Source of the DNA: an uncultured bacterium
GTDB lineage: Bacteria; CSSED10-310; CAZUFC01
Reading direction: 5' to 3'
Assembly: GCA_964619725.1 (NCBI GenBank)
Contig: CAZUFC010000026.1
Span: forward strand, 1-64,000
DNA length: 64,000 bases
Position 1 is the stretch's first letter, and every line of letters begins with the position of its first letter. The notes beneath the pieces are model-generated. The model saw only the letters and a list, made by a program, of their open reading frames with translations. It ran no database searches and was not told the origin of the DNA. This document shows positions 2,930-38,155 of this stretch, piece after piece. The translations under genes and the position numbers were made by a program.

Positions 2930-2959
2930 AAACCTTTTTAACGGCAAAGGAGCCGGAAG

Positions 2960-3544
2960 ATGAAGATTTACACGGGCAGAGGCGATAAAGGTGAGACCGG
3001 GCTGTTCAGCGGCGAGCGGTTGAGCAAAAACAGCGTGCGGGTATGGGCATACGGCACGGTGGATGAATTGAATTCCTCTATAGGGCTGTTGAAAAGCATC
3101 GTGAAAAAAGAAGACCCCAGGCTTTCCCGGGAACTGGAAAATATACAGGTACGGCTGTTTCGAATCGGGAGCTTACTGGCCGTGAGTCCGGGAACGGAAG
3201 AGTCCCTTCAGTTAAGGAAGCCTTCACGGGAAGACATTGTGGAATTGGAAGAAGCCATTGACCGCATGACCAGTGAAATGCCCGAACTGAGAAACTTCAT
3301 CATTCCAGGAAAAAATTTCACGTCCGCGACCGCTCATCTGGCCAGGACTATATGCAGAAGAGCTGAAAGGACGGTAGTCAAAATATATGAGGAGGAGAAG
3401 ATAAAGGATTCTGACGAGGTTTTCATTACTATCCTCGGATACTTGAACAGGCTGTCGGATTACCTGTTTACGACAGCGCGGCATTGCAGTTTCAGAAAAG
3501 AGGATGCCGATACCTTGTGGAATGAGAGTATGCAAACTGATTGA
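2960..3544 (+). CDS. cob(I)alamin adenosyltransferase, PduO type
   Basis: KIYTGRGDKGETGL, AYGTVDELNS, ARTICRRAER, YLNRLSDYLF. Confidence 0.92.
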   Translation: MKIYTGRGDKGETGLFSGERLSKNSVRVWAYGTVDELNSSIGLLKSIVKKEDPRLSRELENIQVRLFRIGSLLAVSPGTEESLQLRKPSREDIVELEEAIDRMTSEMPELRNFIIPGKNFTSATAHLARTICRRAERTVVKIYEEEKIKDSDEVFITILGYLNRLSDYLFTTARHCSFRKEDADTLWNESMQTD

Positions 3545-18795: not shown

Positions 18796-18856
18796 GAATA
18801 AAGAAGCGCTTTGTGGGCAGAAGCTGTAAAAAAAGCGGAAAGGTTTTACAGGTCCG

Positions 18857-19459
18857 ATGTTTGAGAATATAAGAAAAAGGTTTGCTCAGTTTTCAATCAG
18901 GGAAAGAAGAATCATTATCGCCGGGATCGTCATTATCGTTGGATATTTAGCCTATGTCGCCGTTTTTGAACCGCTTTACCGGATGTACCAGCTTGATAAG
19001 GATAAGTTGGACCAGGAAATGCGGTTATTTGAAAAAAACCTGACCATTCTCAGAAAAAGAGAACAATCCCAGTATAAATTGCGACAGGTTGAACGGATGC
19101 GGCGAATGGTGGAATCAGGATTGCTCTCCGGCGAAAGCGCTGAACTGGCTTCGGCCAATCTTCAGGCCATCATCAAAAATTACGCCAGAGAAATCGGCAT
19201 CGATATAGATCGCGTCAGTCCCAGTCCCCCCAAGGTCAGAAACGGGTATAAGGAAATCCGTATCAAATTGCCCTTCAGATGCGATGTTGAAAAATTGAAG
19301 AATTTCCTTTTTATGATTGAAAATTCCGAACGTTTTCTGTTCGTGCCGACATTAGACGTCAGCGTTCCAAATCCGCGAAATCCGAAAACGCTTCGCGTCA
19401 ACCTGGAAGTCGCCGGTTTCATCCAGCAGGAAGAGGAAGAAACCGCGAGCGACACCTAG
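18857..19459 (+). CDS. gspM: GspM / PilO-like protein
   Basis: SIRERRII followed by TM helix, coiled coil, LKNFLFMIE ferredoxin-like domain. Confidence 0.75.
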   Translation: MFENIRKRFAQFSIRERRIIIAGIVIIVGYLAYVAVFEPLYRMYQLDKDKLDQEMRLFEKNLTILRKREQSQYKLRQVERMRRMVESGLLSGESAELASANLQAIIKNYAREIGIDIDRVSPSPPKVRNGYKEIRIKLPFRCDVEKLKNFLFMIENSERFLFVPTLDVSVPNPRNPKTLRVNLEVAGFIQQEEEETASDT

Positions 19460-19626
19460 AAAAAATAATCTACAAAATGAATACGAAAAGAAAGAACGAG
19501 ACCAAACGCAAACAAATCAGTCAATGGAAAAAAAGATTTTGCGATGTTGATCTCCACAATTATAAAATAATTAAAACTTTGAAACTCCTCGAAAACATTA
19601 TTCCAGGCAGTTAGAGGGAGGCTTTA

Positions 19627-22065: not shown

Positions 22066-22083
22066 TAATAAGGGGTACGAATT

Positions 22084-23208
22084 ATGAGAGTTTACATATA
22101 CGCGATATTGAGCATTACAGCGGCTGCGCTTATGTGCTATGTCATCGGAGGGTGCGACAAACCTGATCCGACCGGACCGGCCTCCCAGGCTCGATTAATC
22201 CTGGTGCCGGGCGCGGATACGCTTCCGGCCGACGGCGCTTCCACGACAACGGTTTTCGCCCATGTAAGAAATCCGGACGGAACAGCGGCCGACGGAGCGC
22301 CCATTTTCTTCACTGCTTCATGCGGCACTATTCGTTCAGAAGGAACTGCCGTATCAGGAGGAATGGCCACGGTTACCATCGAAGCCCCCAGTTACCCATG
22401 CACAGCGCTCATTGAAGCGGACTTGCCGACAATGCAGTTGCACAACTCCACGACAGTTGAATTCAAGCCGATAGATTCGGCCACTTTGTCCCTGACGGCT
22501 TCTCCCAAAAGCATACCTGCTGATGGAGAAGCGCATTCGGTGCTGACTGCCAGAGTTTTCGACGAAGAAGGCAAGCCGGTCATTGACGGGACTATAGTGC
22601 ATTTTACGACTAACCTGGGAACCATTGACGACGTTGATGTGGAAACCAGCCTGGGTGAAGCCGTGACCAATCTGAACAGCGGTTATATATCGGGAATTGC
22701 AACCGTCAACGCTGCAGCCGATACAGTTTCCAATACTACCACAGTCGATTTTTATTCCACGGAAGTCGGATCGATCGAATTAAGAGCGCATCCCGATGAA
22801 ATACCGACGGGAGGAAAAAGCATCATCACCGCCACCGTTTACGATCGTAACAGACGAAAAGTTCCCGACGGCACCGTCGTCTATTTCGTTACTACGCACG
22901 GCTCGGTCGACGGCTCCAAAACTACAGACCTGGGTATTGCAACAACGTCGCTCACAGGCGTGTATAATTCCGCAGACGTTTTCATCACGGCTGTCAGCGG
23001 TCAACAAAGCGCTTCCGTTATGGTCAAGGTCAGAGGCGATACTCTGCCCACGCCGTCAGAATCGGCTACGCCCACTCCTTCACCCTCTTCCACGCCGACA
23101 GGCACCATTACGCCTGAACCGTCCGGAACTCCTACCCCTTCCCCCACCGATACCCCGGAAGCCACGATTACGCCTACGCCCACTCCTTCAGCCACACCGA
23201 CGTTTTAA
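22084..23208 (+). CDS. lipoprotein with three Big_1/invasin-type Ig-like domains and Pro/Thr tail
   Basis: IGGC lipobox; ASPKSIPADG...LTARVFD..GKPVIDGTIVHFTTNLG repeats; PTPS tail. Confidence 0.8.
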   Translation: MRVYIYAILSITAAALMCYVIGGCDKPDPTGPASQARLILVPGADTLPADGASTTTVFAHVRNPDGTAADGAPIFFTASCGTIRSEGTAVSGGMATVTIEAPSYPCTALIEADLPTMQLHNSTTVEFKPIDSATLSLTASPKSIPADGEAHSVLTARVFDEEGKPVIDGTIVHFTTNLGTIDDVDVETSLGEAVTNLNSGYISGIATVNAAADTVSNTTTVDFYSTEVGSIELRAHPDEIPTGGKSIITATVYDRNRRKVPDGTVVYFVTTHGSVDGSKTTDLGIATTSLTGVYNSADVFITAVSGQQSASVMVKVRGDTLPTPSESATPTPSPSSTPTGTITPEPSGTPTPSPTDTPEATITPTPTPSATPTF

Positions 23209-23328
23209 TATGATGGCGTATCCAGAAATATATCGATCAATACTCAGCGTCCTTACATCTCTGCATGATCGATATGATTATCAATATCTCAAAGAAAATC
23301 AGCCACTTTTCACTCAGAAGGTGACGGC

Positions 23329-24567
23329 ATGAAATTATTTAAAACTCTTTCGACTTTCCTGGTCATTTTCGGAACAGCCATTCTGATAATCAACGGTTGC
23401 GATAAACCGGACCCCACAGGTCCTGCTTCAACCGCCAGACTCATACTGGTTCCCGAAAACTACGAAGCGCCTGCCGACGGCATGACCACGACGAACGTAG
23501 TAGCATACGTCAGGAATCCCGATGGAACGGCCGCAGACGGCGCTCCCATCTTTTTCTCCGCCTCCTGCGGATTGATCAGGGAAGGAGAGGCCGCAGTCGC
23601 AGGCGGAACCGCAACGATGACCATAGAATCTTCCACTTATCCCTGCACATCAGCCATTACCGCCAGTCTGCCCACAATGTCCCTGGAAAATACCACCCAT
23701 ATTGAATTCACTTCCATTACATCGGAAACGTTAATATTACATGCGTCGCCGACCAGCATTCTGGCTGACGGCGTGGCACAGTCAACCATCACGGCCAAAG
23801 TTTACGGCGAAGACGGCAACCCGGTCATTGACGGCACAACAGTTTATTTCAGTACCGATATGGGAACGCTGAGCGCTGAGTCCGCCGAAACCTCTCTAGG
23901 TAAAGCGCACGTTATGCTGACAAGCAGTGAAATTCCCGGCACCGCCACGGTTACTGCCGTTTCGGGCGTCGTCTCCGATTCCGTACAGGTCCGATTTTCT
24001 TCCACAGACGTAAAATACATAGAACTGACCGCCAGTCCCTATACGATTGGAACAGGTCAGCAAAGCATAGTAACCGCTACAGTCTACGATCAGAACAACA
24101 GGAAAAAAGCAGGCGTCACCGTATACTTCACGACAAACCTGGGCAGCATAGACTCATCAGCCACCACCGATCAATACGGTACAGCCACTGTGAAATTTTC
24201 CTCCTCAACCGCAGGATCAGCCCTCATCACAGCCGTTGCCGGAGACGTCAGCGCCTATATCGTCATTGAAGTTGAAGGAGGCACAATACCCAGTCCCACT
24301 CCAGGCGACGGACCAATAGAAATAACGCCGGGAGCCGCTATCCTTACGGTAGGAGAATCAGAAACTTTTCAGGCCACAGGAGGTTCAGGCTCATACTACT
24401 GGTACCTCGACGACGCAGGAGCCGCAAGAAGCATAGGAACCCTCTCAGCAGACTACGGAAAAAGCACCATCTTCACCGCAGAAAACGAAGGCGAAGGCGA
24501 CCTCTACGCCGTAGACACAAACAATTACGATAACTATGGGTCAGCTTTCATCAGCGTAACAGAATAA
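23329..24567 (+). CDS. paralogous lipoprotein with Big_1 Ig-like domains and a further C-terminal Ig-like domain
   Basis: INGC lipobox; CDKPDPTGPAS..RLILVP shared with upstream gene; ASPTSILADG...VYFSTDMG. Confidence 0.8.
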   Translation: MKLFKTLSTFLVIFGTAILIINGCDKPDPTGPASTARLILVPENYEAPADGMTTTNVVAYVRNPDGTAADGAPIFFSASCGLIREGEAAVAGGTATMTIESSTYPCTSAITASLPTMSLENTTHIEFTSITSETLILHASPTSILADGVAQSTITAKVYGEDGNPVIDGTTVYFSTDMGTLSAESAETSLGKAHVMLTSSEIPGTATVTAVSGVVSDSVQVRFSSTDVKYIELTASPYTIGTGQQSIVTATVYDQNNRKKAGVTVYFTTNLGSIDSSATTDQYGTATVKFSSSTAGSALITAVAGDVSAYIVIEVEGGTIPSPTPGDGPIEITPGAAILTVGESETFQATGGSGSYYWYLDDAGAARSIGTLSADYGKSTIFTAENEGEGDLYAVDTNNYDNYGSAFISVTE

Positions 24568-24631
24568 ATAGCATAATCTACAAAAAATCCGGAATCAAAC
24601 CTCCAGTGTGAATGCCCCTACGATTCCTATC

Positions 24632-24718
24632 GTCCTTTAAGTCCCTTAAGTCCCTTAAGTCCCTTAGGTCCCTTAGGTCCCTTCGTCCCTTTGTCCCTTC
24701 CTCCCTTAAGTCCTTTAA
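24632..24718 (-). repeat. tandem GTCCCTT(AA/AG/T) repeat
   Basis: read directly. Confidence 0.85.
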
Positions 24719-24756
24719 TTCCATTAAATCGAAAAACAAGACCAAACAAAAAAACA

Positions 24757-24940
24757 GGGACTGATCAAACCGGGGTTACACTTTTTACAAAACCTTCGAC
24801 AGTTAGTTTCAGTAATCGGAGTCGGTATCGGGTTCGTAATCGCAATCGCAACCCAAATCGAAATCAAAATCGAAATCGAAACAAAATGATAGAATATTCC
24901 GAAAAATGTAACCTCAAAAGATGCATTTTTGATCCATGCC
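24757..24940 (+). repeat. dispersed repeat family A, copy 2
   Basis: GGGACTGATCAAACCGGGGTTACAC...(AATCGA-like)n...GTAACCTCAAAAGATGCATTTTTGATCCATGCC. Confidence 0.85.
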
Positions 24941-25060
24941 GAAAAAACAATAAGGGGATGCCCGAAAACAAAATTCAACCGCCATTTTACAATTTCAATG
25001 AATTTTAGTACCCTGTAGTAACGTGGACAGTTTATGAACCTCGAACAGGGGAGGAACTCA

Positions 25061-26884
25061 ATGAAAGGGCTAAAGATTTTATTTTTGTTAATGATTCTGT
25101 CGACATGCGTTGGAGAAGGCGTTTTTTCCGCAGTAATCGAAATCCCGGCAGATTACCCGACCATCCAGGAAGGCGTTGACGCGGCCGGCAACGGCGATAC
25201 GATTTTGATCGCCAACGGAACTTACCTGGGCGCCGGCAACAGGAATATTGAACTGCAGGGCAAATCCATAACGGTCATGTCTGCCGGCAGCGCCCTGTTG
25301 TGCATGATCGATTGCGAGAAAACAACGGTGGGTTTCAACATTCATCAGGGTGAAGATCAAAATACGGTCCTGGAAGGTATAACCGTTAAAAACGGATTAG
25401 GCTTGAACGGCGGAGGCATTATATGCGACGGGGCATCCCCGACGATAAGAAATTGCTCTATTACAAGAAATACCGCATTGATCCAGGACCAGGGCAGAGG
25501 CGGCGGTATTTATATAAATAACGCTTCTCCGCAGATTATGAATTGTCTGATCAGAAGGAACATATCGAATGAAGGCGGCGGCCTTTACATGCAGAATTCC
25601 GCGGCAGTAATAGAAAACAGCACGATATTAGGCAATACGAGCGGACTGTCGGGCGGAGGCATTAAGATGATTCAATCTGTTCCCATGTTTGACGGATGCA
25701 TCATTTCCGGTAATTCTTCCTCGTCAGGCGGCGGAGCATACATCACGCAGGGAAGCGATCCGTTATTCTCGACATGCGTTTTTTCCGGCAATAGCGTACC
25801 GCAGAGTTTCCCGGTATATTACGGAGGAGGAGTTCATTGTTATGAGGCTTCGGCCATGGTTTTGAACACTCTGTTCCGGGACAACGGCGCGTATTACGGC
25901 GGCGGCATAGCCTGGGAATCATCAACTGACGTTTCAGTTATCAACTGCATTTTTACGGGTAATCAGGCATTCAGCGGGGCGGCATTATATTGCGAAGAAA
26001 CCGGCCTGCAATTGCTGAACGTGACGGTAGCGAGCAACCTGGCGACAGACGCCGGAGGAGGAATAGATGCCCTGGGGACCTGCAATGCGAATATCGTCAA
26101 CAGCATTTTCTGGAACAACATGCCGGAATCGATAGGCGGCGAAGGTTCGCCGGCGGTAACTTATTCCGACATACAGGGAGGCTGGCCGGGCGAAGGCAAC
26201 ATAGACGCCTGGCCTGAATTCGTCAACGGACCGGTAGGCGGTTACTACCTGAGCCAGATAGCCGCAGGACAATTACTGGACAGTCCCTGCGTGAATGCCG
26301 GCAACGACGCGGCAGCGAATATACTCCTGCCTTTCCCGGAAGGCGACGTCCCGTTAAGCGAACTGACCACAAGAACAGACGAAGTCCCTGACGCAGGGCA
26401 GGCGGATATGGGTTTTCACCTCATCCCGTCGACCCCGACCAATATACCGACGAATTCCCCAACGCCCACCAGGTCTCCCACGGCAACGCCGACCCAGGCT
26501 GCAAGTTACACGCCGACGGCTGAACCCACGATAACCATGGGCGTAAACTTAACCTTATCCGAGGAAATATTCTATCCCAACGACCAGTTTATCCTGAATG
26601 CGATAATATCCAATCCGGGCCCTGAAACATACACCCAAATACCCTTCGCCGTATTACTGGACGCCTACGGACTCTATTTCTGGTATCCCGCCTGGACTAG
26701 CGAATTCAACTACGAAAATATATACTTGGGCATACAGTCCTTCACCAAAGAAATTCTAAACTTCCAATGGCCCAACGAACAAAGTACAGGCTCAGGACTG
26801 ATCTTCTACGGAGCCCTCCTCACCGAAAACTTCACCGGCATTATAGGTGAACTGGGAACCGTTCAGTTCGGCTGGGCCTATTAA
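25061..26884 (+). CDS. secreted right-handed parallel beta-helix repeat protein with Pro/Thr linker and C-terminal beta domain
   Basis: signal peptide, IPADYPTIQEGVD, GGGI/N-rich repeats, PT linker; GAGG RBS before ATG 25061. Confidence 0.8.
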   Translation: MKGLKILFLLMILSTCVGEGVFSAVIEIPADYPTIQEGVDAAGNGDTILIANGTYLGAGNRNIELQGKSITVMSAGSALLCMIDCEKTTVGFNIHQGEDQNTVLEGITVKNGLGLNGGGIICDGASPTIRNCSITRNTALIQDQGRGGGIYINNASPQIMNCLIRRNISNEGGGLYMQNSAAVIENSTILGNTSGLSGGGIKMIQSVPMFDGCIISGNSSSSGGGAYITQGSDPLFSTCVFSGNSVPQSFPVYYGGGVHCYEASAMVLNTLFRDNGAYYGGGIAWESSTDVSVINCIFTGNQAFSGAALYCEETGLQLLNVTVASNLATDAGGGIDALGTCNANIVNSIFWNNMPESIGGEGSPAVTYSDIQGGWPGEGNIDAWPEFVNGPVGGYYLSQIAAGQLLDSPCVNAGNDAAANILLPFPEGDVPLSELTTRTDEVPDAGQADMGFHLIPSTPTNIPTNSPTPTRSPTATPTQAASYTPTAEPTITMGVNLTLSEEIFYPNDQFILNAIISNPGPETYTQIPFAVLLDAYGLYFWYPAWTSEFNYENIYLGIQSFTKEILNFQWPNEQSTGSGLIFYGALLTENFTGIIGELGTVQFGWAY

Positions 26885-28100: not shown

Positions 28101-31100
28101 GTGACTTCATTTTCCAGGATAAACGATAACGAATCGCCCAAACGTATGCTGAACATATTCATATCATCCACGGCAGAAGACCTGGAGACTCACAGAACCA
28201 GGCTGATCAACGCAGTCCAGCGTTCCGGTCACCATCCCTCGTATATGGAAACATTCGGCGCAAGACCCGATCAGCCGGTAGAAGGATGCCGGAAATTAAT
28301 AAAAAAGTCTGACGCCGTAATAGTCATCGTCGCCTATCGTTACGGTTACGTGCCGGACAGAGACGAAGGCGGCGACGACAAACATTCCATGACCTGGCTG
28401 GAGGTCAAAGCGGCTGAGGAATTCAACAAGCCGGTATTCGCTTTTCTGGTCGATGAAAAAGCGCCCTGGACGAAAATGCGGGAAGAAAATTTGTTGAATG
28501 AGGTCCTGGAAGATGTTGAAGCATCACAACGAATTCTGAGTAACATGCGATCACTAAGGGAATTCAAAAAATATTTAGAAAAAAAATGCATGCGCGATAA
28601 ATTCCGATCAGAAGACGACTTGGCCGAAAAAGCGATTTCAAGCCTGTCCCGATGGATTAATGAAGAATTCGGACTTCGGACGAGCATCCCCGCAAGCGAC
28701 GCCGTATCCGAAACGGAAATCCTGGAAGGTTATCTGAACAAACTCCTCCCGGAAACAAGATGGATCGATATAAGAGGCATAAGCGCGGAGCGGGGATCAT
28801 CAAAGGACATGTGGCGTTTCCCCATTGAGGAACTTTTCACGCCGTTGAAAACCACAGGCTTCGCTAATAAAGCCGGCGGGTTCAAACCCGACATGGAAAA
28901 ACGCCGACCGGATGATATGCCGCTGAAAACGGAGGAACAGGACCAGCGACCGGAACTGTCGGATTTTCTGAAAGATAACCGCAAGCTGCTCCTGATAGGC
29001 GCGCCGGGAGGCGGAAAAACCACCTTCCTGCGCCTTATATCATGTGTGCTCGCAAAGGACCTCCTGGGAGAAAAGCATGGTTTCACTCAACCGGGCCGCT
29101 CGGTTCACCTGGGATTACACCTGACCGATGAACCGCCGGTCCCGGTCTTCATCAGGCTGGCTCTACTGGCATCTTACATGAATAAGGATGATGACGTCCC
29201 CTGCAACGATCACATATCCCGTATACTGAATCTTTTTCAAAAACTGTACGGCGAGCAAACCAGGGATATACTCGAAAAACGCCTGAACGAAGGGCGTTGC
29301 GCCCTTTTGCTAGATGGACTCGACGAAGTGGCCGACACCGACATGCGATGCCGAATCACAAATCTGGTGGATGAAATACTGCAGAAATGGGGAGAGAACC
29401 TGGTGATAGTCACTTCCAGACCGCACGGTTACAAGGAGGTCGAAGGATTAAAAGGCGTCGTAAAACTTGAAATAGACGAGTTTAACGAAAAGGACACGGC
29501 CGAATTCCTGAATAAGTGGGTCAACGTCATCTACTCTGAGCAGGATATGGAATCGCGGAACAGTTACCATCAGGAGCTGGAAGCGGCCATAGGATCATCC
29601 CGCAACATAAGAAGAATGGCCCGGAACCCCGTCATGCTGACCTGCCTGTGCGTGGTTCACTGGAACGAACGAAAGTTGCCGGAGGGCAAGGCTGACCTGA
29701 TGAGCGCGGTATTACGATGGCTGGTGGACGTCAGGAAAGAACAGAGGAAAAACGAAGGTTACACCAACACCTTTGCCGAAGAATGTTTCAAGTCGCTGGC
29801 CCTGGGCATGACGAATCATCCCGGAGGCAAAAAAAGCGTGGTCGACATAGCCTGGGCAGCCGAACAATTAGCCAAACCCTTCCATACCGAACAGGGAATT
29901 GACGACCTGGAAACCGTCCGAAGAAAAGGAAGTCATATCCTGGAATCAGAAATGATCTTCAGCGGCATTATAGAACGGGTCGGCCTGGGACAGTTAAGAT
30001 TCTGGCACCTGACTTTTCAGGAACATTACGCAGCCAGGCGCATTTCTGAACTGAGCGACCTGGACGATGAAACAGGATGGTGGCCTCTGATTAAACCTCA
30101 TATTTACGACCAGCAATGGTTCGAACTCCTGGACCATTTCGCGGGTTGCCTCTCCAGAAAAGGAAGGGAAAAACTCAACCTGCTCGTTGAAAGGTTTCTG
30201 AACGATTGCGATGACTCAGACCTGGCTTCAGTGGCTAAAACAGTCGGCATCCTGGGACGCCTGTTGCGAGTGCTCGAAGAATACGAATATACTCCGCCGC
30301 CGCAACTAGGCTGGGAAAAAGCACGCGAACGGGTCATGGAAATATTTAAAGTGGAAGGCGCAAAAAAAGTGAAAATCAAGCAAAGAATCACCGCAGCAGA
30401 AGCCCTGGGACAAAGCGGAGACCCCAGGTTAGAATTGCGTGAAAGGAAAAAGAATTTTAGACCGATTCCAGGACTCGAAAAGATAAAATTGGGAATATAT
30501 CCCGTCACCGTGGAAGAATACAAAGCCTTTGTCGAGGATGACGGTTACCGGAAACAGGATTTCTGGGGCGAATACTGGAGGATTCGTGAAAAAAATGAAT
30601 GGAATGCGCCCGATAATTGGGAGCGACAGTTGGACAAACCGAACCGTCCCGTCGTCTATGTGTCATGGTACGAAGCCAAAGCATACTGCCGCTGGCGATC
30701 CAAAACAGAACGCAGGGAGTATCGCCTGCCTGCGGAAAAAGAGTGGGAAGCGGCTGCCGTTAATCCTGACGGACCCTATCCATGGGGTAAAGAAGAACCG
30801 AATAATGAATTGGCGAATTATTATTTTGCGGGACCGAGAGAAACGACGCCTGTCGGTGTTTACCCGGCGGGCGCCACGCCTGAAGGTCACCTGGATATGG
30901 CGGGGAATGTCTGGGAATGGTGCGAAGATGACGTTACAAAAGAATACAAGGGCGATCGCCCTCTGCGGGCGCTGCGGGGCGGCTGCTTTTGGCTCGATGC
31001 TGTTTGCCTTCGCTCGACGGACCGTGACTGGCTCGAGGCTGATTACCGGAGCGACGACCTCGGCTTTCGGTTGGTCGTCGCCGCGAGCACGGTTGATGTT

Positions 31101-31103
31101 TGA
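28101..31103 (+). CDS. DGR target 1: DUF4062 - NACHT NTPase - FGE-sulfatase/C-type lectin fold protein
   Basis: IFISST..DL...ME.FGARP...RYG...SMTWLE (DUF4062); GAPGGGKTT, LLLDGLDEV, VTSR, NPVML, FWHLTFQEHYAA (NACHT); YPVT, PVVYVSWYEA, RLP.EKEWE, DMAGNVWEW, GFRLV (FGE). Alternative start ATG 28146. Confidence 0.92.
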   Translation: MTSFSRINDNESPKRMLNIFISSTAEDLETHRTRLINAVQRSGHHPSYMETFGARPDQPVEGCRKLIKKSDAVIVIVAYRYGYVPDRDEGGDDKHSMTWLEVKAAEEFNKPVFAFLVDEKAPWTKMREENLLNEVLEDVEASQRILSNMRSLREFKKYLEKKCMRDKFRSEDDLAEKAISSLSRWINEEFGLRTSIPASDAVSETEILEGYLNKLLPETRWIDIRGISAERGSSKDMWRFPIEELFTPLKTTGFANKAGGFKPDMEKRRPDDMPLKTEEQDQRPELSDFLKDNRKLLLIGAPGGGKTTFLRLISCVLAKDLLGEKHGFTQPGRSVHLGLHLTDEPPVPVFIRLALLASYMNKDDDVPCNDHISRILNLFQKLYGEQTRDILEKRLNEGRCALLLDGLDEVADTDMRCRITNLVDEILQKWGENLVIVTSRPHGYKEVEGLKGVVKLEIDEFNEKDTAEFLNKWVNVIYSEQDMESRNSYHQELEAAIGSSRNIRRMARNPVMLTCLCVVHWNERKLPEGKADLMSAVLRWLVDVRKEQRKNEGYTNTFAEECFKSLALGMTNHPGGKKSVVDIAWAAEQLAKPFHTEQGIDDLETVRRKGSHILESEMIFSGIIERVGLGQLRFWHLTFQEHYAARRISELSDLDDETGWWPLIKPHIYDQQWFELLDHFAGCLSRKGREKLNLLVERFLNDCDDSDLASVAKTVGILGRLLRVLEEYEYTPPPQLGWEKARERVMEIFKVEGAKKVKIKQRITAAEALGQSGDPRLELRERKKNFRPIPGLEKIKLGIYPVTVEEYKAFVEDDGYRKQDFWGEYWRIREKNEWNAPDNWERQLDKPNRPVVYVSWYEAKAYCRWRSKTERREYRLPAEKEWEAAAVNPDGPYPWGKEEPNNELANYYFAGPRETTPVGVYPAGATPEGHLDMAGNVWEWCEDDVTKEYKGDRPLRALRGGCFWLDAVCLRSTDRDWLEADYRSDDLGFRLVVAASTVDV
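30955..31091 (+). repeat. DGR variable repeat VR1
   Basis: 137-bp ungapped match to TR; 18 mismatches, all opposite TR adenines. Confidence 0.97.
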
Positions 31104-31135
31104 ATTATTGAATATTGATCTTTATTCTTGGGGTT

Positions 31136-31154
31136 CCAGGGGCGGAGCCCCTGG
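31136..31154 (+). promoter_or_regulatory. DGR target-recognition hairpin/cruciform downstream of VR1
   Basis: CCAGGGGC-GGA-GCCCCTGG, 32 nt after stop. Confidence 0.85.
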
Positions 31155-31242
31155 CGAACGCAAAAACGTAATTATGTCATTTTGTAAACCCCGCCATGCA
31201 ACCAAAACGACAAAATGACAAACAAAATGACAAGCGTGACAA

Positions 31243-32250
31243 TCATTGACGGATTGCCGCAAAACCGGTCAAACCGCGATAAGAAGACAACGAACGGTAA
31301 AAATCCTCCGGTCTTCCATGTCCGGCCAGATACCGGAGCCTTCTCCTCATCCTCACCAGCATTCGCCTGGATGGTCTTATGCCGGAACGTGAAACATGAT
31401 ATCCCAGATAAATGAAAGCGCCCGACGTCCGCCTGGGTTGAACAGAGGGATTCTTTATCCGCAGTCGCCTATTTTTCATCAACCAGTCTACGGCTGCTTC
31501 CTTCGCCTCGGCCAGGCGCCGGCGGGAATCGGAAAAAAGAGCTGTATCGTCCATGTAACGTTGAACGTGAGGTATTTTCAGCTCCCGTTTAAGGAAGTGG
31601 TCGAAGCCCGACAGGTAATGATTTCCCCACCATTGACTGGTTAAGTTGCCTATCGGCAATCCGCAATCGTAAGGCGGATACCCTGGCGGCAAATTCAGCT
31701 TTTCGGAAACGTCGCGCCTTCTGTAAATCCCACGCCCGCTGTCAGCGATTAATCTCAGCAACCATAAAAAATCATCGTCTTTTATTTTTTTCCTCATTAT
31801 CTGCATCAATATGTTAATATCAATGCTCAGAAAATAATGAGCGATATCCATCAAAAGAGCAAAACGATATCGCCTGACAGCGCCGAGAAAACGAATCACG
31901 GCCCTGTGCGATCCTCTGCCCGGAAGGCATGCGTAAGTTGTATCGATCAATCCCCTGTCCATGAACGGTGCGATAACTCTGTGAACTGCATGATGAACGA
32001 TTCTGTCACGTACCGAAGCGGCAGAAATCAGTCTTATCTTAGGGTCATTAATGAAAAACAGATGGTATCCTCCGTGACTATAATTTTTCTGCTCCAAATC
32101 ACGACTCAATTTAATAATTTCTCGATCCGCTTCGGCCTCGAATCGTCTGACCGAGGGCCGGTTCCGTTTCCCGCGACGAAATTGCCGCCAGGCACGCCAA
32201 AGATTCCTTATTTCTGCCGTTTTATGAAAGAGGTCGCCGGCTCTTTTCAT
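31243..32250 (-). CDS. DGR reverse transcriptase
   Basis: DPKIRLISAASVRDRIVHHA, YACLPGRGSH, MDIAHYF.SI, GLPIGNLTSQW (DGR-type SQ), RYMDD, FIYLGY; 335 aa with no maturase or endonuclease domain. Confidence 0.95.
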   Translation of the reverse strand: MKRAGDLFHKTAEIRNLWRAWRQFRRGKRNRPSVRRFEAEADREIIKLSRDLEQKNYSHGGYHLFFINDPKIRLISAASVRDRIVHHAVHRVIAPFMDRGLIDTTYACLPGRGSHRAVIRFLGAVRRYRFALLMDIAHYFLSIDINILMQIMRKKIKDDDFLWLLRLIADSGRGIYRRRDVSEKLNLPPGYPPYDCGLPIGNLTSQWWGNHYLSGFDHFLKRELKIPHVQRYMDDTALFSDSRRRLAEAKEAAVDWLMKNRRLRIKNPSVQPRRTSGAFIYLGYHVSRSGIRPSRRMLVRMRRRLRYLAGHGRPEDFYRSLSSYRGLTGFAAIRQ

Positions 32251-32437
32251 TTTCTGCCCCTATGCGGTTTTGTTTCTGGAATCCTTATCCCTGTATGAAC
32301 ATTGGACGGCTTTACAGAAACGGAAAGCCCGGCCGGACGTTCGGCGCTTGCCTACCAGAACGGCCGGGCGAAGGTTAATTCGGCATGCCGCAGCACGCCC
32401 GGATTCCTCCTGCACGGTGATCATCATCTTTCGTCAG

Positions 32438-32574
32438 CGTGTTCGCGGCGACGACCAACCGAAAGCCGATGTTGTCGTTCCGGTTATCAGCCTCGTTCCT
32501 GTTACGGTTCGTTGAGCGAAGGTTATCAGCATCGTTCCAATAGCTGCCGCCCCGCAGCGCCCGCAGAGGGCGAT
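32438..32574 (-). ncRNA. DGR template repeat TR (part of DGR RNA)
   Basis: between avd and RT; 31 adenines, 9 AAC codons in target frame; matches both VRs. Confidence 0.95.
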
Positions 32575-32601
32575 ACTTTTCAGAGAAACCCTCGGTCATC
32601 A

Positions 32602-32934
32602 TTATATCTCTTTCTGCTTTTTCAACCAACCGCCGATTTGCCGTCCTATAAGGTCCGCCTGCTGCGAAAATTCCAGGTAACTCATCTCTGTAAGTAACCC
32701 AAGCTCGAATCCCAACGCCATATATGCCCTGAGCAGACGCAGATCGCAGTCGGCATCGGTCAGGCTCTCGAACCTGTTGCGGCCTTGTATCGCAAGCGTT
32801 ATATCGTCAAGAAGATGAAAGCTTGCATTTATCAGTCTATTTTTCAATAAAGTGTAGCGCGGCAATGATTCCAGTTCCTCAAGAAGTACTCCGCATAAGG
32901 CCATAACATCTCTGTACAAAGGCGATTCTTTCAT
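32602..32934 (-). CDS. avd: accessory variability determinant Avd (four-helix bundle)
   Basis: 110 aa helical protein, LPRY, LRLLRAYM, C-terminal IGRQIGGWLKK; immediately upstream of TR. Confidence 0.85.
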   Translation of the reverse strand: MKESPLYRDVMALCGVLLEELESLPRYTLLKNRLINASFHLLDDITLAIQGRNRFESLTDADCDLRLLRAYMALGFELGLLTEMSYLEFSQQADLIGRQIGGWLKKQKEI

Positions 32935-32938
32935 CAGA

Positions 32939-33565
32939 CTAATAACCCGTCGGATCGCGGCGGCTGCCGAATCCTTGAAAACGCTTCCTGTACGATCTCT
33001 TTTCAGTACTCCTCACCAGCGATGATAAAAAAGGGATGTAATCCTGCTCTATCCTGTCCGCAAATTCAATACGCATCGATTCATCCGCTCCGTTTTTTAT
33101 CAGAAGTTGAATGACCGCAGAGGCCGCCGCTTTCCGGGCTTCATTATAATGCAGCGACTTGTTGTTCGGTTGATACTCGTGACACCCCCGGCAAAGCGCC
33201 GTTAGAGAATCCTCAAGAAGACGGCTCGCCGGATGCTCCTCTCCCAGACGCAAACTGGTCTCTTTGTATATGATTATCCCCGACTTGTAAGCCCGCAGAT
33301 CACGAACTGAATAATACCTGCCCTTTTTCACTTTGCCCACGGAACGGCCCACAGGGGAAATCGCCTCATCCGCCGCATCCTGCAGATTCTTCAGTCGCAT
33401 GGCCGCCGCTGTCCTCTGCGCATTACTCAAAGGCAGAACTTCAGAATCGATGACCCAGCGGCCGCCCTTTTTTCGTGCCGGCAATTCATTCTTCTTAATG
33501 GCGTAACGCAACTGCCTCACGCTTTTACCCAATAAGTCAGCAGCCTCTGATAAGGACAGTTCCAT
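32939..33565 (-). CDS. helix-turn-helix (excisionase/HTH_17-like) protein fused to a four-helix-bundle-like domain; likely start ATG 33565
   Basis: LSLSEAADLLGKSVRQLRYAIKKNELPARKKGGRWVI; C-terminal SVRDLRAY...LCRG...HYNEARKAAASAVIQL; AAGGGGAA RBS. Confidence 0.75.
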   Translation of the reverse strand: MELSLSEAADLLGKSVRQLRYAIKKNELPARKKGGRWVIDSEVLPLSNAQRTAAAMRLKNLQDAADEAISPVGRSVGKVKKGRYYSVRDLRAYKSGIIIYKETSLRLGEEHPASRLLEDSLTALCRGCHEYQPNNKSLHYNEARKAAASAVIQLLIKNGADESMRIEFADRIEQDYIPFLSSLVRSTEKRSYRKRFQGFGSRRDPTGY

Positions 33566-33706
33566 AAGTTCCCCTTTTGTCAAGATTGTTTCAATATCGG
33601 CAGTTTGTCAATGCTGTCTTTAACAAAACTGCTGTAATTCTTACATATTGTCAGTAATTTGTCAAGTTTAAACGGTGAAAATGACGAAATTTCGAATTTG
33701 TCGCGG

Positions 33707-33725
33707 CCAGGGGCTTCGCCCCTGG
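33707..33725 (-). promoter_or_regulatory. DGR target-recognition hairpin/cruciform downstream of VR2
   Basis: CCAGGGGC-GAA-GCCCCTGG on the minus strand, 32 nt after stop. Confidence 0.85.
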
Positions 33726-33757
33726 ACCCCTGAAAGACAAGAACAATTATCAATAAA

Positions 33758-36700
33758 TCAAACATCAACCGTGCTCGCGGCGACGACCAACCGAAAGCCG
33801 ACGAGGTCGTCCCGGGGACCAGCCTCGCTCCAGAGACGGTGCGGAGAGCGAAGGTTACCAGCAACGTCCCAATAGCCGCCGCCCCGCAGCGCCCGCAGAG
33901 GGCGATTTGAACTCCCCCCATATTCTTCAGTAACATCATCTTCGCACCATTCCCAGACATTTCCCGCCATATCCAGATGACCGGCCGGCGCAGCCCCTTT
34001 CGGATAAATTCCCACTGGTGTGGGGCTGTCCACGTTACTGTAAAAATTCGCCAACTCAGCATCAGGCTCATCTTTCCCCCAGGGATACGGACCGTTCGAG
34101 TTCCGCGCCGCATCTTCCCATTCTTCCTCGTAGGGCAGCCGATAATTCCGTTTCCGCTCCAGTTTAGAACGCCATCGGCAATAGGCCACGGCTTCGTACC
34201 AGGAAACTTCAACCACGGGTCTATTGGGCGTTTCCAACTGGTCCTCCCAACTGTCGGGTTTAGTCCAGTCGTTATCTTCACGAATTTTCCAGTATTCGCC
34301 CCAGAATTCCTCTTTGGAATAACCGCCGTCATCGACGAAGTCTTTAAACTCTTCGACGGTTACGGGATAAATACCGAGCATAAGATGTTCGCGTCCTGGT
34401 ACAAGCTCGAAGTTATTAACCCGCTTTTCCGGCGTCAGGCGAGGGTCTCCGCCCTGTCCCAGTCCTTCGGCCGCGGTAATTCTATCTTTGATTTTGACCT
34501 TTTCTGCGCCTTCAACAGTAAATATTTCCATAACCCTGTCGCGAGCCACTGTCCATCCGATCTGCGGCGGAGGCGTGTATCTGTAGACCTCCAGCACTCG
34601 AAGCAATCTTCCCAGGACGCCGACTGCCCTGGCCGTTCCCGCCAGTCCTTCTTGTTCGCCCTGTTCCAGAATACGTTTAACCAGTTTAGTCAGTCCATCC
34701 CTCCTTGTTTTTGCCAGGCACCCGGCGAAATGGTCCAGCACTTCGGCCCAGTTGCGATCATGCACATGAGGCGATATGATCCGCCACCACCCTTTTTCAT
34801 CATCTTCATCCCTGCATTGAGCCAGCATGACGGCAGCATAGTGTTCCTGAAACGTCAGGTGCTTGAACCGGACCTGTCCTTCATTGACTCTTTCCACTAT
34901 GCCGCTGTCCATCATTTCACATTCTAAAAATCGAGTTCCTTTATCGTTCAATTCCCTATGGTCCGTAATGCCGAATTCGTTGTAAAACGGTCCTTTCAGA
35001 AATTCAGCCGCTTCCGAAAGATCGGCGACGGCCTTTTTACCGGCTTTATGAGTCGTCATTTCAAATGCCAAGGTCTTGAAACACTGTTCAGCGAATTCAT
35101 TGCCGTAACCCCTGGATTCACGGACATGCTTGTGGGAATTCAACAACCACTTGAGCACAGCGGCCAAAAGATCGGCTTTACCTTCCGGCAGTTTTCTTTC
35201 ATTCCAGTGAACCACGCAGAGGCATGTGAGCATGACCGGGTTTTTCGCCAGTCTTCTTATCGTCGGCGATGAGATGATCGCTTCATTCAGCTCGAACCTG
35301 AGCTTACGGCATTCCCTTTGATCTTCGGGAAAAACCGCTGCCGCCCAGCGATCGATAAATTCGATTATTTCATCTTCGCCGAAATCGGAGATATGAGTGG
35401 TATTCATGGTTTCCAGTTCGGAGACTCCTTCGTATCCGAATGGACGTGAAGTGATGACGATCAGGCTCTTTTTCCATTTTTTGACGGAAGCTTCCACGAT
35501 ATTGATTACCTGCTCCCGTCTTTCCAGTTCAGGGACCTCATCCAGTCCGTCGAATAAAAGAGCGGCCCGTCCTTTGATCAAACGATTTTCGATAATATTA
35601 CGCATGGGTTTCCCATGGATGGATTCCAGGTATTCAAAAAGGCAGCGAACAGGGTTGACGTCTCTTCCCTGGTCATTTCTGGAAATATGCTGGGAAAGCG
35701 CGGCCAGGGTAACGAATACAGGCAGCGGAGCGACTTTCGCCAGGTCAAGCCCCAGGTGGATATGCCGTTCCTTCGCTGTTTCATTTTTCATTTCCGTAAG
35801 CATATCTTCCGCGGTAACGCATGCGATGAACCGTAAAAACGTGGTTTTACCGCCGCCGGGAGCCCCTACCAGCATCAGTTTGCTGCAATCCTTCAGCAAA
35901 TCTGAAAGTTTGACGTCGCGTTCTCTTTCCATACCGGCATGCTGCAATTCATCGTCACCGCCGGCGCTGCGTGATCGTCCTCTCCTGACCGCGCACTCCG
36001 GTCCCGCCGTTTTTAAAGGCGTAAACAGTTTTTTGATGGAAAAATGGCTGGCGGCATATCCTTCGCCCGCTCGCGAACCGATCCCCTGTATCTTGATGCG
36101 GGAAAATTGTGATACGACCGACTCCAGGTATTCCCTCAGCGCCTTCCTTTCAGAAACATGGTGCAGTTCTATATCCGGTCCGGGAACCGGTGGCGTTCGA
36201 TCGCCCGGTCTGAGAACGTCGATTCTCTCTCGCAGATGGTTTGAAAGCGCTGTTACCACTTTTTTCGCCAGGTTATCCGGGTTCAGGAATGTCGTTAAAG
36301 TATGTTTGTCGTTAAGGTGTTTTTTGAAGTTTTTGAGTTCCTGTATCGCCTTGTAAATATCCTGAATTTCGTGAGGTTTCGCCTCTTCCATACGGTCCTG
36401 TTCTTTCGGAAGAAAACGCTTAAGAGAATCGTCCGCAATATAAGCGAACACCGGAATGCCTTTTTTCTCAGCCGCTTCAACCTCGAACCAGGTAATGGAC
36501 TTTGCTCCGTTCCCGCCTTTTTCCGCCGTAGGGACCCATCCATAACGCCATCCGACGATAACGACCAGCGCATCAGCGCTATCTGCCATGCCCAAAGATT
36601 CGTTCAAAGGTGTATCGGGACGCGCTCCGAAGCTTTCCATCCCGACTGATTGAATGTGAAGATCGTCGACAGCTTCCCGGACTGCATTGCGATAAGGCTT

Positions 36701-36784
36701 CAGGTCTTCATAAGTAGAGGATATAAAAACGCGAAAAGCCCTGTGCCTGTCAAACGTGTTATCAGGATAACCATTTCGGTTCAT
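33758..36784 (-). CDS. DGR target 2: DUF4062 - NACHT NTPase - FGE-sulfatase/C-type lectin fold protein
   Basis: VFISSTYEDL..MESFGARP..RYG..SITWFE; GAPGGGKTT, LLFDGLDEV, ITSR; DMAGNVWEW..GFRLVVAASTVDV; paralogue of 28101..31103. Confidence 0.92.
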   Translation of the reverse strand: MNRNGYPDNTFDRHRAFRVFISSTYEDLKPYRNAVREAVDDLHIQSVGMESFGARPDTPLNESLGMADSADALVVIVGWRYGWVPTAEKGGNGAKSITWFEVEAAEKKGIPVFAYIADDSLKRFLPKEQDRMEEAKPHEIQDIYKAIQELKNFKKHLNDKHTLTTFLNPDNLAKKVVTALSNHLRERIDVLRPGDRTPPVPGPDIELHHVSERKALREYLESVVSQFSRIKIQGIGSRAGEGYAASHFSIKKLFTPLKTAGPECAVRRGRSRSAGGDDELQHAGMERERDVKLSDLLKDCSKLMLVGAPGGGKTTFLRFIACVTAEDMLTEMKNETAKERHIHLGLDLAKVAPLPVFVTLAALSQHISRNDQGRDVNPVRCLFEYLESIHGKPMRNIIENRLIKGRAALLFDGLDEVPELERREQVINIVEASVKKWKKSLIVITSRPFGYEGVSELETMNTTHISDFGEDEIIEFIDRWAAAVFPEDQRECRKLRFELNEAIISSPTIRRLAKNPVMLTCLCVVHWNERKLPEGKADLLAAVLKWLLNSHKHVRESRGYGNEFAEQCFKTLAFEMTTHKAGKKAVADLSEAAEFLKGPFYNEFGITDHRELNDKGTRFLECEMMDSGIVERVNEGQVRFKHLTFQEHYAAVMLAQCRDEDDEKGWWRIISPHVHDRNWAEVLDHFAGCLAKTRRDGLTKLVKRILEQGEQEGLAGTARAVGVLGRLLRVLEVYRYTPPPQIGWTVARDRVMEIFTVEGAEKVKIKDRITAAEGLGQGGDPRLTPEKRVNNFELVPGREHLMLGIYPVTVEEFKDFVDDGGYSKEEFWGEYWKIREDNDWTKPDSWEDQLETPNRPVVEVSWYEAVAYCRWRSKLERKRNYRLPYEEEWEDAARNSNGPYPWGKDEPDAELANFYSNVDSPTPVGIYPKGAAPAGHLDMAGNVWEWCEDDVTEEYGGSSNRPLRALRGGGYWDVAGNLRSPHRLWSEAGPRDDLVGFRLVVAASTVDV
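33770..33906 (-). repeat. DGR variable repeat VR2
   Basis: 137-bp ungapped match to TR; 19 mismatches, all opposite TR adenines. Confidence 0.97.
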
Positions 36785-37029: not shown

Positions 37030-37282
37030 GAAAAACGTCAGGCGAAAGCTTCAGGAAATTGAGCCACGGATTTTCACGGATCGAACACGGATGAAATGAA
37101 TTTGAAATATGAAAAATGAACCGGACGGCGAAAACGCTGAACCAAAAGCTTACGCGTCTTCGCCGCCGCCGGTTATACGCATGACGATATGTTTTTGCCG
37201 TTTCCGCTGGACGTGCATGAAATCAAATTGCTTTTTTCAGCATGTGATGCTAGATTAAAACTTAGGAATGGGTGGAGAAAAG

Positions 37283-38155
37283 ATGATGAAATTTGTTGAT
37301 CCTAAAAATGATGTAGCGTTTAAAAAGATTTTTGGAGATGAGAACAAAAAACAGATACTCATCAGTTTCCTCAACGCCATTCTGGACTATATCGGCACCG
37401 ACAAGGAAATCGAAAGCATCGACATTTTGAATCCTTACCAGATTCCGAAGCTGCCGGGGCTTAAGGAGACTATTCTGGATATTCGGGCCGTAGACAGGCG
37501 CAAAGTCAGCTATATCATCGAAATGCAAGTTTTTCACACGCCTGCGTTTGAAAAACGAGTTCTTTACTATGCAGCCAAGTCCTACGCCATGCAGTTGGAA
37601 AAAGCCGAAGATTACCCCCGGCTGAACCAGGTGATCTTCATAGGTTTTCTGGATTTCATAGTATTTCGAGATGATCCTCGATACATGACGCGTCATCTGG
37701 TCCTGGAAGAAAAAACGAACGATCACTATTTGAAGGACTTGGACTTTCGGTTTATAGAATTACCGAAGTTTACCCGGGAGCTGGATGAAATAAAAGACGT
37801 CAAAGAGAAGTGGATATATTTCGTGAAAAATGCGGCGGACCTCCAGATTATACCCGCCAATATGAAAGAGCCTCCTGCTTTGCGCGAAGCTTTCGAGTCA
37901 GCGGATCAGATGAGTTGGAGCAAGGAAGAATTGCACGCTTATGATGCGAAGGGCATTTACATCCAGGACGAACGGGGCAGAATTGAACTGGCGCTGAGGC
38001 AGGGTGAAGAGATCGGCATGGTTAAAGGCGTAAAGATCGGAGCAGAAAGGGAAAAATTACAAACAGCCCTGAAAATGAAAAGGGAAGGTCTGGATGTTTC
38101 CATTATCATGAAGGTTACCGGGCTTTCACGTAATGATATTGCCGGATTGAAGTAA
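37283..38155 (+). CDS. Rpn family recombination-promoting nuclease / PD-(D/E)XK putative transposase
   Basis: DPKNDVAFKKIFG, LISFLNAIL, ILDIRA...IIEMQ, RVLYYAAK, FIELPKF, C-terminal GxxxG repeats and VTGLS. Confidence 0.9.
   Translation: MMKFVDPKNDVAFKKIFGDENKKQILISFLNAILDYIGTDKEIESIDILNPYQIPKLPGLKETILDIRAVDRRKVSYIIEMQVFHTPAFEKRVLYYAAKSYAMQLEKAEDYPRLNQVIFIGFLDFIVFRDDPRYMTRHLVLEEKTNDHYLKDLDFRFIELPKFTRELDEIKDVKEKWIYFVKNAADLQIIPANMKEPPALREAFESADQMSWSKEELHAYDAKGIYIQDERGRIELALRQGEEIGMVKGVKIGAEREKLQTALKMKREGLDVSIIMKVTGLSRNDIAGLK

Follow-up and report, generated by a model that had tools for sequence, protein, structure and literature searches.

Layout of the locus

The stretch of DNA considered here (the window) comprises 64,000 nucleotides (nt), positions 1 to 64,000 of contig CAZUFC010000026.1 in the uncultured bacterial assembly GCA_964619725.1. 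It carries a diversity-generating retroelement (DGR), in which one template repeat (TR), a reverse transcriptase (RT) and the protein Avd are found together with two target genes, each with a variable repeat (VR) near its 3' end, and with a gene for a helix-turn-helix (HTH) protein. The genes and features of the element are as follows, in order of position and with lengths in amino acids (aa) or nt.

28101-31103, plus strand: target 1, 1000 aa, with DUF4062 at residues 19-104, NACHT at 296-474 and an FGE-sulfatase/C-type-lectin domain at 796-992
30955-31091, plus strand: VR1, near the 3' end of target 1, 12 nt before the gene end
31136-31154: hairpin 1, CCAGGGGC-GGA-GCCCCTGG, 44 nt past the end of VR1, folds
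31175-31241: four TGACA boxes (three direct TGACAA repeats), between hairpin 1 and the RT stop
31243-32250, minus strand: DGR reverse transcriptase, 335 aa, RVT_1, with IGNLTSQ and YMDD
32251-32437, minus strand: Sp-like spacer of the DGR RNA, from TR to RT, 187 nt, with conserved structure
32438-32574, minus strand: TR, with 31 adenines, 27 of them in the variable core
32602-32934, minus strand: Avd, 110 aa, PF22296 bAvd at 46.9 bits, above the cut-off of 40
32939-33565, minus strand: HTH accessory gene, 208 aa, HTH_17 of excisionase type plus a C-terminal four-helix bundle
33578-33664, minus strand: four TGACA boxes, in the stretch from hairpin 2 to the HTH gene
33707-33725 (read on the minus strand): hairpin 2, CCAGGGGC-GAA-GCCCCTGG, 44 nt past the end of VR2, folds
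33758-36784, minus strand: target 2, 1008 aa, with DUF4062, NACHT and an FGE-sulfatase/C-type-lectin domain
33770-33906, minus strand: VR2, at the 3' end of target 2

Read along the minus strand, the features run from target 2 through an intergenic region of 190 nt, the HTH gene, Avd, the TR and the 187-nt spacer to the RT, and target 1 on the plus strand is convergent with the RT from the opposite side. All of the defining parts are present and intact, and the locus is confirmed as a genuine, complete DGR in which one TR serves two targets, as a preliminary description of this DNA had claimed.

Template and variable repeats

The TR, VR1 and VR2 were aligned with MAFFT, and the mismatches were counted by script. 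The TR aligns with both VRs over 137 columns with zero gaps, and the borders of the homology are abrupt on both sides. VR1 differs from the TR at 18 positions and VR2 at 19, and each of these mismatches lies opposite a TR adenine; the non-A positions of the TR are unchanged in both repeats (0/106 in VR1 and 0/106 in VR2). With 31 adenines among 137 positions, the probability that all mismatches fall on A by chance is 1.5e-14 for VR1 and 1.6e-15 for VR2. These numbers reproduce exactly the gapless alignment and the A-only mismatches given in the preliminary description, the three peptides quoted there are identical to the translations of the TR, VR1 and VR2 obtained here, and the formal alignment gave no mismatch at a non-adenine position. 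An origin of the three repeats by plain duplication or gene conversion without reverse transcription is practically impossible, since nothing beyond the repeats themselves speaks for it, all 37 mismatches are opposite adenines of one copy only (p of about 1e-14 and 1e-15), an intact DGR RT and Avd adjoin this adenine-template copy, and the mismatch spectrum rules it out.

The variable core extends over TR positions 30-105 and contains 27 adenines across 19 codons. Of these adenines, 26 are in codon position 1 or 2; eight of the codons are AAC, and no stop codon can be reached by substitution. The codon count agrees with the earlier figure of 27 core adenines and 4^27 DNA variants per target (10^16.3), corresponding to about 10^15.3 protein variants. 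TR positions 106-131 are without A and are identical in the TR and both VRs. At TR position 75 (codon AGG; window positions 31029 and 33832) an A-to-T change is observed in both VRs, resulting in Trp in both proteins; this shared residue may stem from selection for a Trp with a structural role and not from chance.

Both VRs lie within the last 49 codons of the PF03781 domains, and an open reading frame (ORF) of 84 aa over the TR (32375-32629) matches FGE-sulfatase only because the TR copies the VR. The two targets share 50% protein identity, and their identity ranges from 37 to 84% per 100 aligned DNA columns. Because the identity at non-A positions is perfect while the paralogs have otherwise diverged, both VRs are read as having been overwritten from the TR after the genes diverged. 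The whole assembly (9.17 Mb, 344 contigs) was searched for remote VRs with BLAST and with an ungapped scan allowing any A change plus up to 12 other changes, and no third VR was found in it.

Reverse transcriptase, Avd and genomic setting

The best match of the RT in the PDB is 8ub7_A, the reverse transcriptase of a DGR ribonucleoprotein (E 4.2e-36, 127.9 bits), compared with 53.9 bits (E 1.4e-13) for the group II intron RT GsI-IIC and about 27 bits for retron-type RTs. The motif [I/L/V]GxxxSQ is specific to DGR RTs, and both motifs named in the preliminary description, GNLTSQ and YMDD, are present (as IGNLTSQ and YMDD). In a maximum-likelihood tree of 27 RTs, a branch with support 100/99 splits the DGR-linked RTs from the group II intron and CRISPR RTs of the same genome, and the window RT and that of a second cassette on contig C9 are sisters (100/98). 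Grouping with group II intron or retron RTs, the outcome that would have spoken for another kind of element, is therefore not what the best match and the tree give. NCBIfam holds no DGR RT model; its best model for this protein is a group II RT/maturase, at 85 bits against a cut-off of 300. The genome also encodes a group II intron RT (RVT_1 + GIIM) and a CRISPR-associated RT adjoining Cas1 (contigs C274:1920-2729 and C78:1672-2523).

The Avd gene ends 27 nt before the TR, in line with its earlier placement directly upstream of the TR, and no solved relative of Avd was found by sequence search. A few observations weigh against the assignment and its context. The match of Avd to NCBIfam NF033474 (E 1.8e-12, 47.5 bits) is below the cut-off of 80; the assembly is a metagenome-assembled genome (MAG) with 6.5% contamination; and no relatives closer than phylum level were found among the 30 other genomes searched, in which only short, chance-level matches were observed.

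The neighbouring genes encode type II secretion components, Ig-like proteins, a sulfatase and a PD-(D/E)XK transposase-like protein, and because of these neighbours the setting is read as chromosomal and not phage. Directly upstream of target 1, the region 16813-26884 (plus strand) contains PilM/GspL-like, GspM and secretin genes (type II secretion/pilus-like), followed by genes for two Big_1/invasin-like proteins and one Chlamydia-PMP-repeat protein. On the other side, at 37268-38155 (plus strand) and 480 nt from the start of target 2, lies the PD-(D/E)XK nuclease-family transposase-like gene (PF12784, 8e-52); transposons in DGR duplication have been discussed by Dore et al. 2024 (PMC10907252). 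At gathering thresholds, Rfam gave 0 matches over the whole window.

Related cassettes

The comparison set consists of 10 related cassettes, of which nine are from MAGs of other genomes assigned to several labelled phyla and one is the cassette on C9. The nine RTs from other genomes are 47-58% identical to the window RT. A homolog of the HTH gene is present in 10/10 of the cassettes, and the order target - HTH - Avd - TR - RT is found in 9/10, usually followed by a reversed target; in the remaining cassette (L027) the HTH gene comes after the second target. Two VRs per TR are present in 8/10, and serving two targets is normal for this lineage and not a special feature of the window. Over the 18 TR-VR pairs of the related cassettes, 240 of 272 mismatches are at TR adenines.

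The related cassettes also bear on TR position 133, which is A in the TR and G in both VRs. The TR ends in CGAACACG in 11/11 related cassettes, and the VR ends in CGAGC in 17/18, among the matches listed. Since the two ends are thus fixed differently across the related cassettes, this mismatch is better read as a lineage-wide TR/VR difference of the IMH*/IMH type (initiation of mutagenic homing) than as a product of mutagenesis.

The second full cassette of the genome, at C9:103855-108527 (L014, L042), is arranged as target - HTH - Avd - TR - RT - reversed target. The RT encoded there shares 59% identity with the window RT, the upstream target is followed by the same CCAGGGGC hairpin as in the window, and in the downstream VR 13 of 15 mismatches are at TR adenines and 2 at G. 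Further DGR material or NACHT-FGE paralogs are present on contigs C280, C8, C226, C23, C324 and C6. Contig C280 (the whole 4.5 kb) carries an HTH-less DGR with 19/21 mismatches at the template base; C8:46291-49406 contains a target with a TR/spacer-like stretch after it and no more than a fragment of an RT; and C6:15008-16510 contains the N-terminal half of a DUF4062-NACHT protein, after which come three TGACA boxes. With this material, the genome is considered to carry a receptor repertoire along with degenerate cassettes.

The targets are on opposite strands in the window (28101-31103 plus, 33758-36784 minus) and in most related cassettes. In work on BPP-1 in E. coli from 2026, the orientation of the target relative to replication was reported to affect efficiency (PMC12875486). 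Should the effect apply to this locus, diversification might proceed faster in one VR than in the other.

Spacer RNA and hairpins

The spacer between TR and RT can be aligned across 11 cassettes and contains invariant blocks; this alignment was not fitted to a structure. Its consensus structure has 29 pairs, with 94.2% of cells paired and compensatory changes in 15 pairs. None of 500 shuffles reached any of five measures, and slid controls were 29-46% paired. In one of the helices, CACG at the 3' end of the TR pairs with CGUG of the invariant CACCGUGCAGG block. In BPP-1, the spacer sets the end of the TR in place for priming, and the helix found here fits a DGR RNA whose spacer would position the TR end in the same way.

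The motif CCAGGGGC-GRA-GCCCCTGG has three copies in the 9.17 Mb assembly, past VR1, past VR2 and past the upstream target on C9, and the reversed-sequence control gave 0 copies. Almost the same stem follows the VRs of the nearest RT relatives, whereas more distant relatives have other GC stems, mostly with three-base loops of the G-N-A type, and the 260 nt upstream of the HTH gene contain the exact CCAGGGGC hairpin in only 4/33 metagenome loci. The stem sequence is thus not conserved lineage-wide. For the DGR hairpin, it has been described that the structure of the stem matters and its sequence does not, while the loop is sequence-dependent (Guo et al. 2011, PMC3240598), and the stem variation with G-N-A loops agrees with this description. 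The hairpins were also considered as intrinsic terminators and rejected, as they lack a T run and were not listed as terminator-like, and sites of that kind do not stand out in number from shuffles. The invariant 3' end of the VR and the downstream hairpin are putative target-side signals (IMH and hairpin).

The HTH accessory gene and the TGACA boxes

The ORF of the HTH gene starts at ATG 33565 (208 aa) or possibly at TTG 33583 (214 aa); the ATG is the start common to 11 aligned homologs. HTH_17 is N-terminal in 11/11 homologs, and no Pfam family covers the C-terminal 120 residues. The first 35-40 residues match excisionase-type models (PF12728 at 9e-10, and TIGR01764), and a profile of 123 family members matches the excisionase-type protein 4j2n (Gp37) over residues 3-37 with E 4e-4. 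An AlphaFold model (pLDDT 85.5) consists of a winged HTH, a long helix and a four-helix bundle. The fold of the bundle matches 2rld of the S23/IVP family (Z 12.4) and the Avd structures 8ub7_B (Z 11.9) and 4dwl (Z 11.0), with unrelated bundles at 12-13. The best Foldseek match, 2gsc, is weak (E 0.054). An hhalign comparison of the C-terminal domain with Avd gave insignificant probabilities of 0.2% and 1%, and protein-atlas leads reached only 0.78.

A word-indexed search found four relatives of the HTH protein besides the window's own, and a full profile search was needed to find the family, which, in a set of 1.84 billion proteins, has 626 representatives at E <= 1e-10 and 216 at the stricter E <= 1e-30. 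Linkage to the RT was counted in 40 metagenome loci with the HTH family, of which 17 were too short to judge. Where a full-length HTH gene is followed by at least 1,600 nt, an RT is present in 18/18 loci (one RT is inverted, and two loci are near-duplicates); five loci with HTH fragments only have no full RT (0/5) and an RT fragment in 1/5. In the metagenome locus L054, the RT (2396-3376) is on the strand opposite HTH-Avd, a rearranged cassette. No HTH relatives were found in viral contigs. The HTH gene is a lineage-specific accessory that is tightly linked to this RT lineage. In the literature searched, no description of the HTH gene or of the TGACA boxes as parts of a DGR was found, although the gene may be drawn unnamed in figures.

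The whole window contains 62 TGACA sites, compared with 95 expected, and eight of them lie in the two clusters at 31175-31241 and 33578-33664. In the related loci, the boxes are at least 10-fold enriched in the corresponding flanks, and TGACA is the top-enriched 5-mer before the HTH gene. Densities of TGACA/TGTCA, counted per 100 nt, are listed here by region.

180 nt before the HTH gene: 1.91 (37 loci)
Rest of those 37 loci: 0.12
From the RT end to the end of the convergent target: 2.42 (24 loci, with two near-duplicates among them)
Non-ORF DNA elsewhere in the same loci: 0.05 (3 sites across 5,542 nt)
First 40 contigs of the genome, non-ORF DNA: 0.18

The consensus of the boxes is TGACAA(A/T)T, the two strands are used 71 and 58 times, and the spacing has peaks at 10-11, 20-22 and 32-33 nt. 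The C9 cassette has two and three boxes on its two sides, and in the HTH-less DGR on C280 the 1,020 nt from target to RT are free of boxes. A caveat is that TTGACA is also the -35 consensus.

From this co-occurrence, the HTH protein most likely binds the phased TGACAA boxes beside each VR. The role that such binding would have can be read in two ways. It is quite possible, though short of probable, that the protein is a mere transcriptional regulator or autoregulator and that the boxes are promoter or operator elements with no part in retrohoming. HTH_17/MerR-type domains are common in regulators, TTGACA is the -35 consensus of sigma-70, and one of the boxes makes up the -35 in a promoter-like site that precedes the HTH gene (TTGACA-17-AAGAAT, 33665-33637). 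However, the boxes are equally enriched between the RT and the 3' ends of convergent targets (2.42 per 100 nt in 24 loci), where no promoter is expected; each flank has several boxes with the spacing peaks given above; and the number of promoter-like sites in the region does not stand out from shuffles (12 compared with 9.7 +/- 3.4). The gene and the boxes together suggest a target-marking accessory factor. A more specific version of this role is put forward tentatively, as less likely than not: the HTH-bundle protein could be a fourth dedicated DGR protein that binds the phased TGACAA arrays beyond the hairpin, 3' of every VR, and acts as an architectural and target-marking 'directionality factor' of mutagenic retrohoming, bringing or orienting the RT-Avd-cDNA at the VR.

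Activity of the element

The locus is found in four DNA runs (X1-X4) of one microbial-mat study, which were available as Logan contigs; X1 may be the source of the assembly. These contigs drop rare variants and give a consensus-level view of one study. The preliminary description had proposed that the element is recently or currently active and had suggested looking in reads for polymorphism in the VRs. The absence of drift at non-A positions, on which this proposal rested, stands. The comparison of the VRs was made on the Logan contigs, and no VR variants were seen among the matches listed; minority variants are invisible in contigs. As the VRs are identical in these contigs, current activity can be suggested but is not observed.

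Several observations weigh against activity. Among the matches listed, VR1 is covered over 104 nt by an X2 contig and in full (137 nt) by an X3 contig, and an X4 contig spans 115 nt of VR2, with 0 differences in any of the three; no RNA runs with the locus are listed. The identical VRs argue only against rapid turnover at the population level; no consensus-level turnover is visible. In X1, 24 rows of differing letters were considered as VR variants and rejected, as they are from two single contigs with 24 and 20 differences per about 100 nt, including non-A TR positions; these two contigs are probably from the paralogous cassette on C9. Contig breaks at 31074-31089 and 33772-33787 coincide with sequence common to the TR and both VRs and are read as assembly-graph effects.

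It is rather unlikely, but to be taken seriously, that the element is a relic or only very rarely active, with VRs that were written earlier and are now fixed alleles and with cDNA that is no longer mobilized. The identical VR1 and VR2 in X2, X3 and X4 would be expected in this case, and degenerate relatives do occur, both in the same genome (the target, TR/spacer-like stretch and RT fragment on C8) and in the five metagenome loci with HTH fragments and no full RT. On the other hand, all ORFs of the window element are intact, as are the spacer RNA, the hairpins and the boxes; 0/212 non-A positions have drifted, compared with two non-A mismatches among 15 in the C9 sister cassette; and variants carried by a minority of cells would escape a contig-level view. 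Recent activity is inferred from the zero non-A drift together with the integrity of every part.

Target proteins

Target 1 matches the Pfam families PF13271 (1.8e-18), PF05729 (1.7e-10) and PF03781 (4.5e-40). PF13271 (DUF4062) is found with E 1.8e-18 and 4.4e-18 in the two targets, and PF05729 (NACHT) is present in both. The Walker A motif of target 1 is GAPGGGKTT and its Walker B is LLLDGLDE; GAPGGGKTT and DGLDE are intact in both targets. Among 22 targets of related loci, the FGE domain is present in 22/22 and NACHT in 20/22. The N-termini of these 22 proteins differ and include DUF4062 (2), TIR_2 (4), SIR2_2 (3), Metallophos (6) and CHAT (1), and because the N-terminal domain is swapped in this way, DUF4062 is placed in the effector slot. 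The targets are therefore most likely NLR-like (akin to nucleotide-binding receptors with leucine-rich repeats) intracellular sensors with an effector-NTPase-sensor layout.

DUF4062 has been described as a TIR-like NADase in abortive-infection phage defence (bioRxiv 10.64898/2026.05.01.722283, 10.64898/2026.06.25.731849), and DUF4062-NACHT fusions in the eukaryotic TEP1/NWD proteins are noted in the same preprints. The N-terminus of target 1 matches the DUF4062 chain 10wc of KpSwz with E 1.3e-5 as a single sequence and 2.8e-9 as a profile. The Glu of an S-x-T-x-x-E motif is invariant in 4/4 aligned DUF4062 targets (E101 of target 1), and an F-x-S-S-T motif is also present. This Glu fits the catalytic region of Eva01, which has been described as 'acidic-SYT ... 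E-Y' (bioRxiv 10.64898/2026.05.01.722283, 10.64898/2026.06.25.731849).

Some points count against an enzymatic, defensive reading of the targets. The equivalence of E101 with the catalytic Glu of DUF4062 (E97 of KpSwz) is proposed from motif descriptions, the PDB alignments of DUF4062 stop at chain residue 75-76, before the Glu site, and the targets matched 0 defence families in PADLOC. The diversified proteins could instead recognize other ligands, in kin or self recognition or in regulatory signalling, as was once proposed for cyanobacterial DGR targets, and would then not be anti-phage sensors. In addition to the lack of a PADLOC defence model that matches the targets, no defence island is evident around the locus among the neighbour genes, and the immune role was called untested by Dore et al. 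2024 (PMC10907252). Nevertheless, a role outside defence is unlikely, as the N-terminal slot of the relatives is filled by TIR, SIR2, CHAT and phosphoesterase domains, all typical effectors of abortive infection, and DUF4062 proteins defend against phage via NAD+ depletion according to the two 2026 preprints.

Interpretation of the locus as a whole

The locus is very probably best explained, as a whole, as a complete chromosomal DGR with a minus-strand HTH-Avd-TR-spacer-RT operon and two oppositely oriented, paralogous targets that are NLR-like sensors. By analogy with the BPP-1 mechanism, RT-Avd would reverse transcribe the TR-spacer RNA with random incorporation opposite adenines. Each VR would then be replaced by the cDNA, for which the invariant 3' stretch (IMH) and the hairpin further downstream would serve as target signals, and the conserved HTH protein would most likely bind the phased TGACAA boxes past the hairpin beside each VR. 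Replacement would rewrite 19 codons of the ligand-binding face of the C-type-lectin (CLec) domain. The variable CLec tip of the sensor may bind an invader or another ligand, after which the NACHT domain would oligomerize and the N-terminal DUF4062 NADase would presumably deplete NAD+.

The locus joins three current lines of research, namely DGR 'antigen sensors', bacterial NACHT/NLR immunity and DUF4062 NADases, although this link alone is incremental; an NAD+-degrading immune role of the DUF4062 effector was reported only in 2026, in two preprints. The comparative yield is greater, since the HTH gene, the covarying spacer RNA, the hairpin and the phased boxes are testable candidates for DGR target recognition. 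How a DGR recognizes its target sites and directs the cDNA to them is a mechanistically unclear step, and the HTH-box model, if true, gives a handle on it. The same four parts, the HTH gene, the spacer RNA structure, the hairpin and the phased TGACAA boxes, are most worth following up and could aid in porting such DGRs into tractable hosts for targeted diversification.

Comparison with known systems

The DGR of BPP-1 (mtd-avd-TR-brt; ribonucleoprotein 8ub7) has in common with the window element the RT-Avd pair, the order avd-TR-RT and A-specific mutagenesis. Also common to both are a VR at the 3' end of a gene with the CLec fold, a hairpin past the VR and a structured spacer RNA 3' of the TR. 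The BPP-1 element differs in belonging to a phage and in having a single target, a tail protein for receptor binding, and it is not known to have an HTH accessory gene. Its hairpin is immediately past the VR (Guo et al. 2011, PMC3240598), compared with 44 nt away in the window.

The N-terminal HTH of the window protein resembles phage excisionases and recombination directionality factors (e.g., 4j2n, Gp37). Excisionase-type proteins bind arrays of short, helically phased repeats, the kind of site present beside the VRs. In contrast to phage excisionase systems, no integrase or att site is present here, and the HTH protein has an extra four-helix-bundle domain.

Among the DGR accessory genes Avd, HRDC, MSL and CH1 of Wu et al. 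2018 (PMC5758913), the HTH gene is comparable in that it is small, lies within the cassette, belongs to one RT lineage and co-occurs with avd, as MSL does. The available text of that study mentions no HTH, and five peptide motifs of the HTH family had 0 matches in its supplementary text (1.13 million characters), although the gene could still be the same as MSL. DGRs with two targets make up 13% of the set of Wu et al. 2018.

The locus belongs to a described class, the cellular DGRs that diversify paired sensors of the STAND-CLec type (signal transduction ATPases with numerous domains, STAND), and its kind is already known. In clade 5D of Dore et al. 2024 (PMC10907252), DGRs have two targets, each with a STAND NTPase and one CLec domain and often with unannotated N-terminal extensions, and these targets were proposed to be antigen sensors. 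The likeness to members such as DGR 3 and DGR 6 of Thiohalocapsa PB-PSB1 is one of architecture only, namely the two STAND-CLec targets. In the main and supplement text of that paper, supplement figures aside, neither an HTH gene nor TGACA boxes are mentioned. DGR-diversified FGS domains have also been linked to conflict systems (Kaur et al. 2020, PMC7159879).

The Swarozyc and Evangelion proteins (bioRxiv 10.64898/2026.05.01.722283, 10.64898/2026.06.25.731849) have an N-terminal TIR-like DUF4062 domain, as the window targets do. As available, the text of both preprints does not contain 'diversity-generating retroelement', and that of the Swarozyc preprint (bioRxiv 10.64898/2026.05.01.722283) does not contain 'retroelement'. 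In these proteins DUF4062 is combined with a fixed auxiliary sensor domain and no DGR, whereas in the window it is followed by NACHT and a hypervariable CLec domain, a DUF4062-NACHT layout that is closer to that of eukaryotic TEP1/NWD1, as presented in the same preprints.

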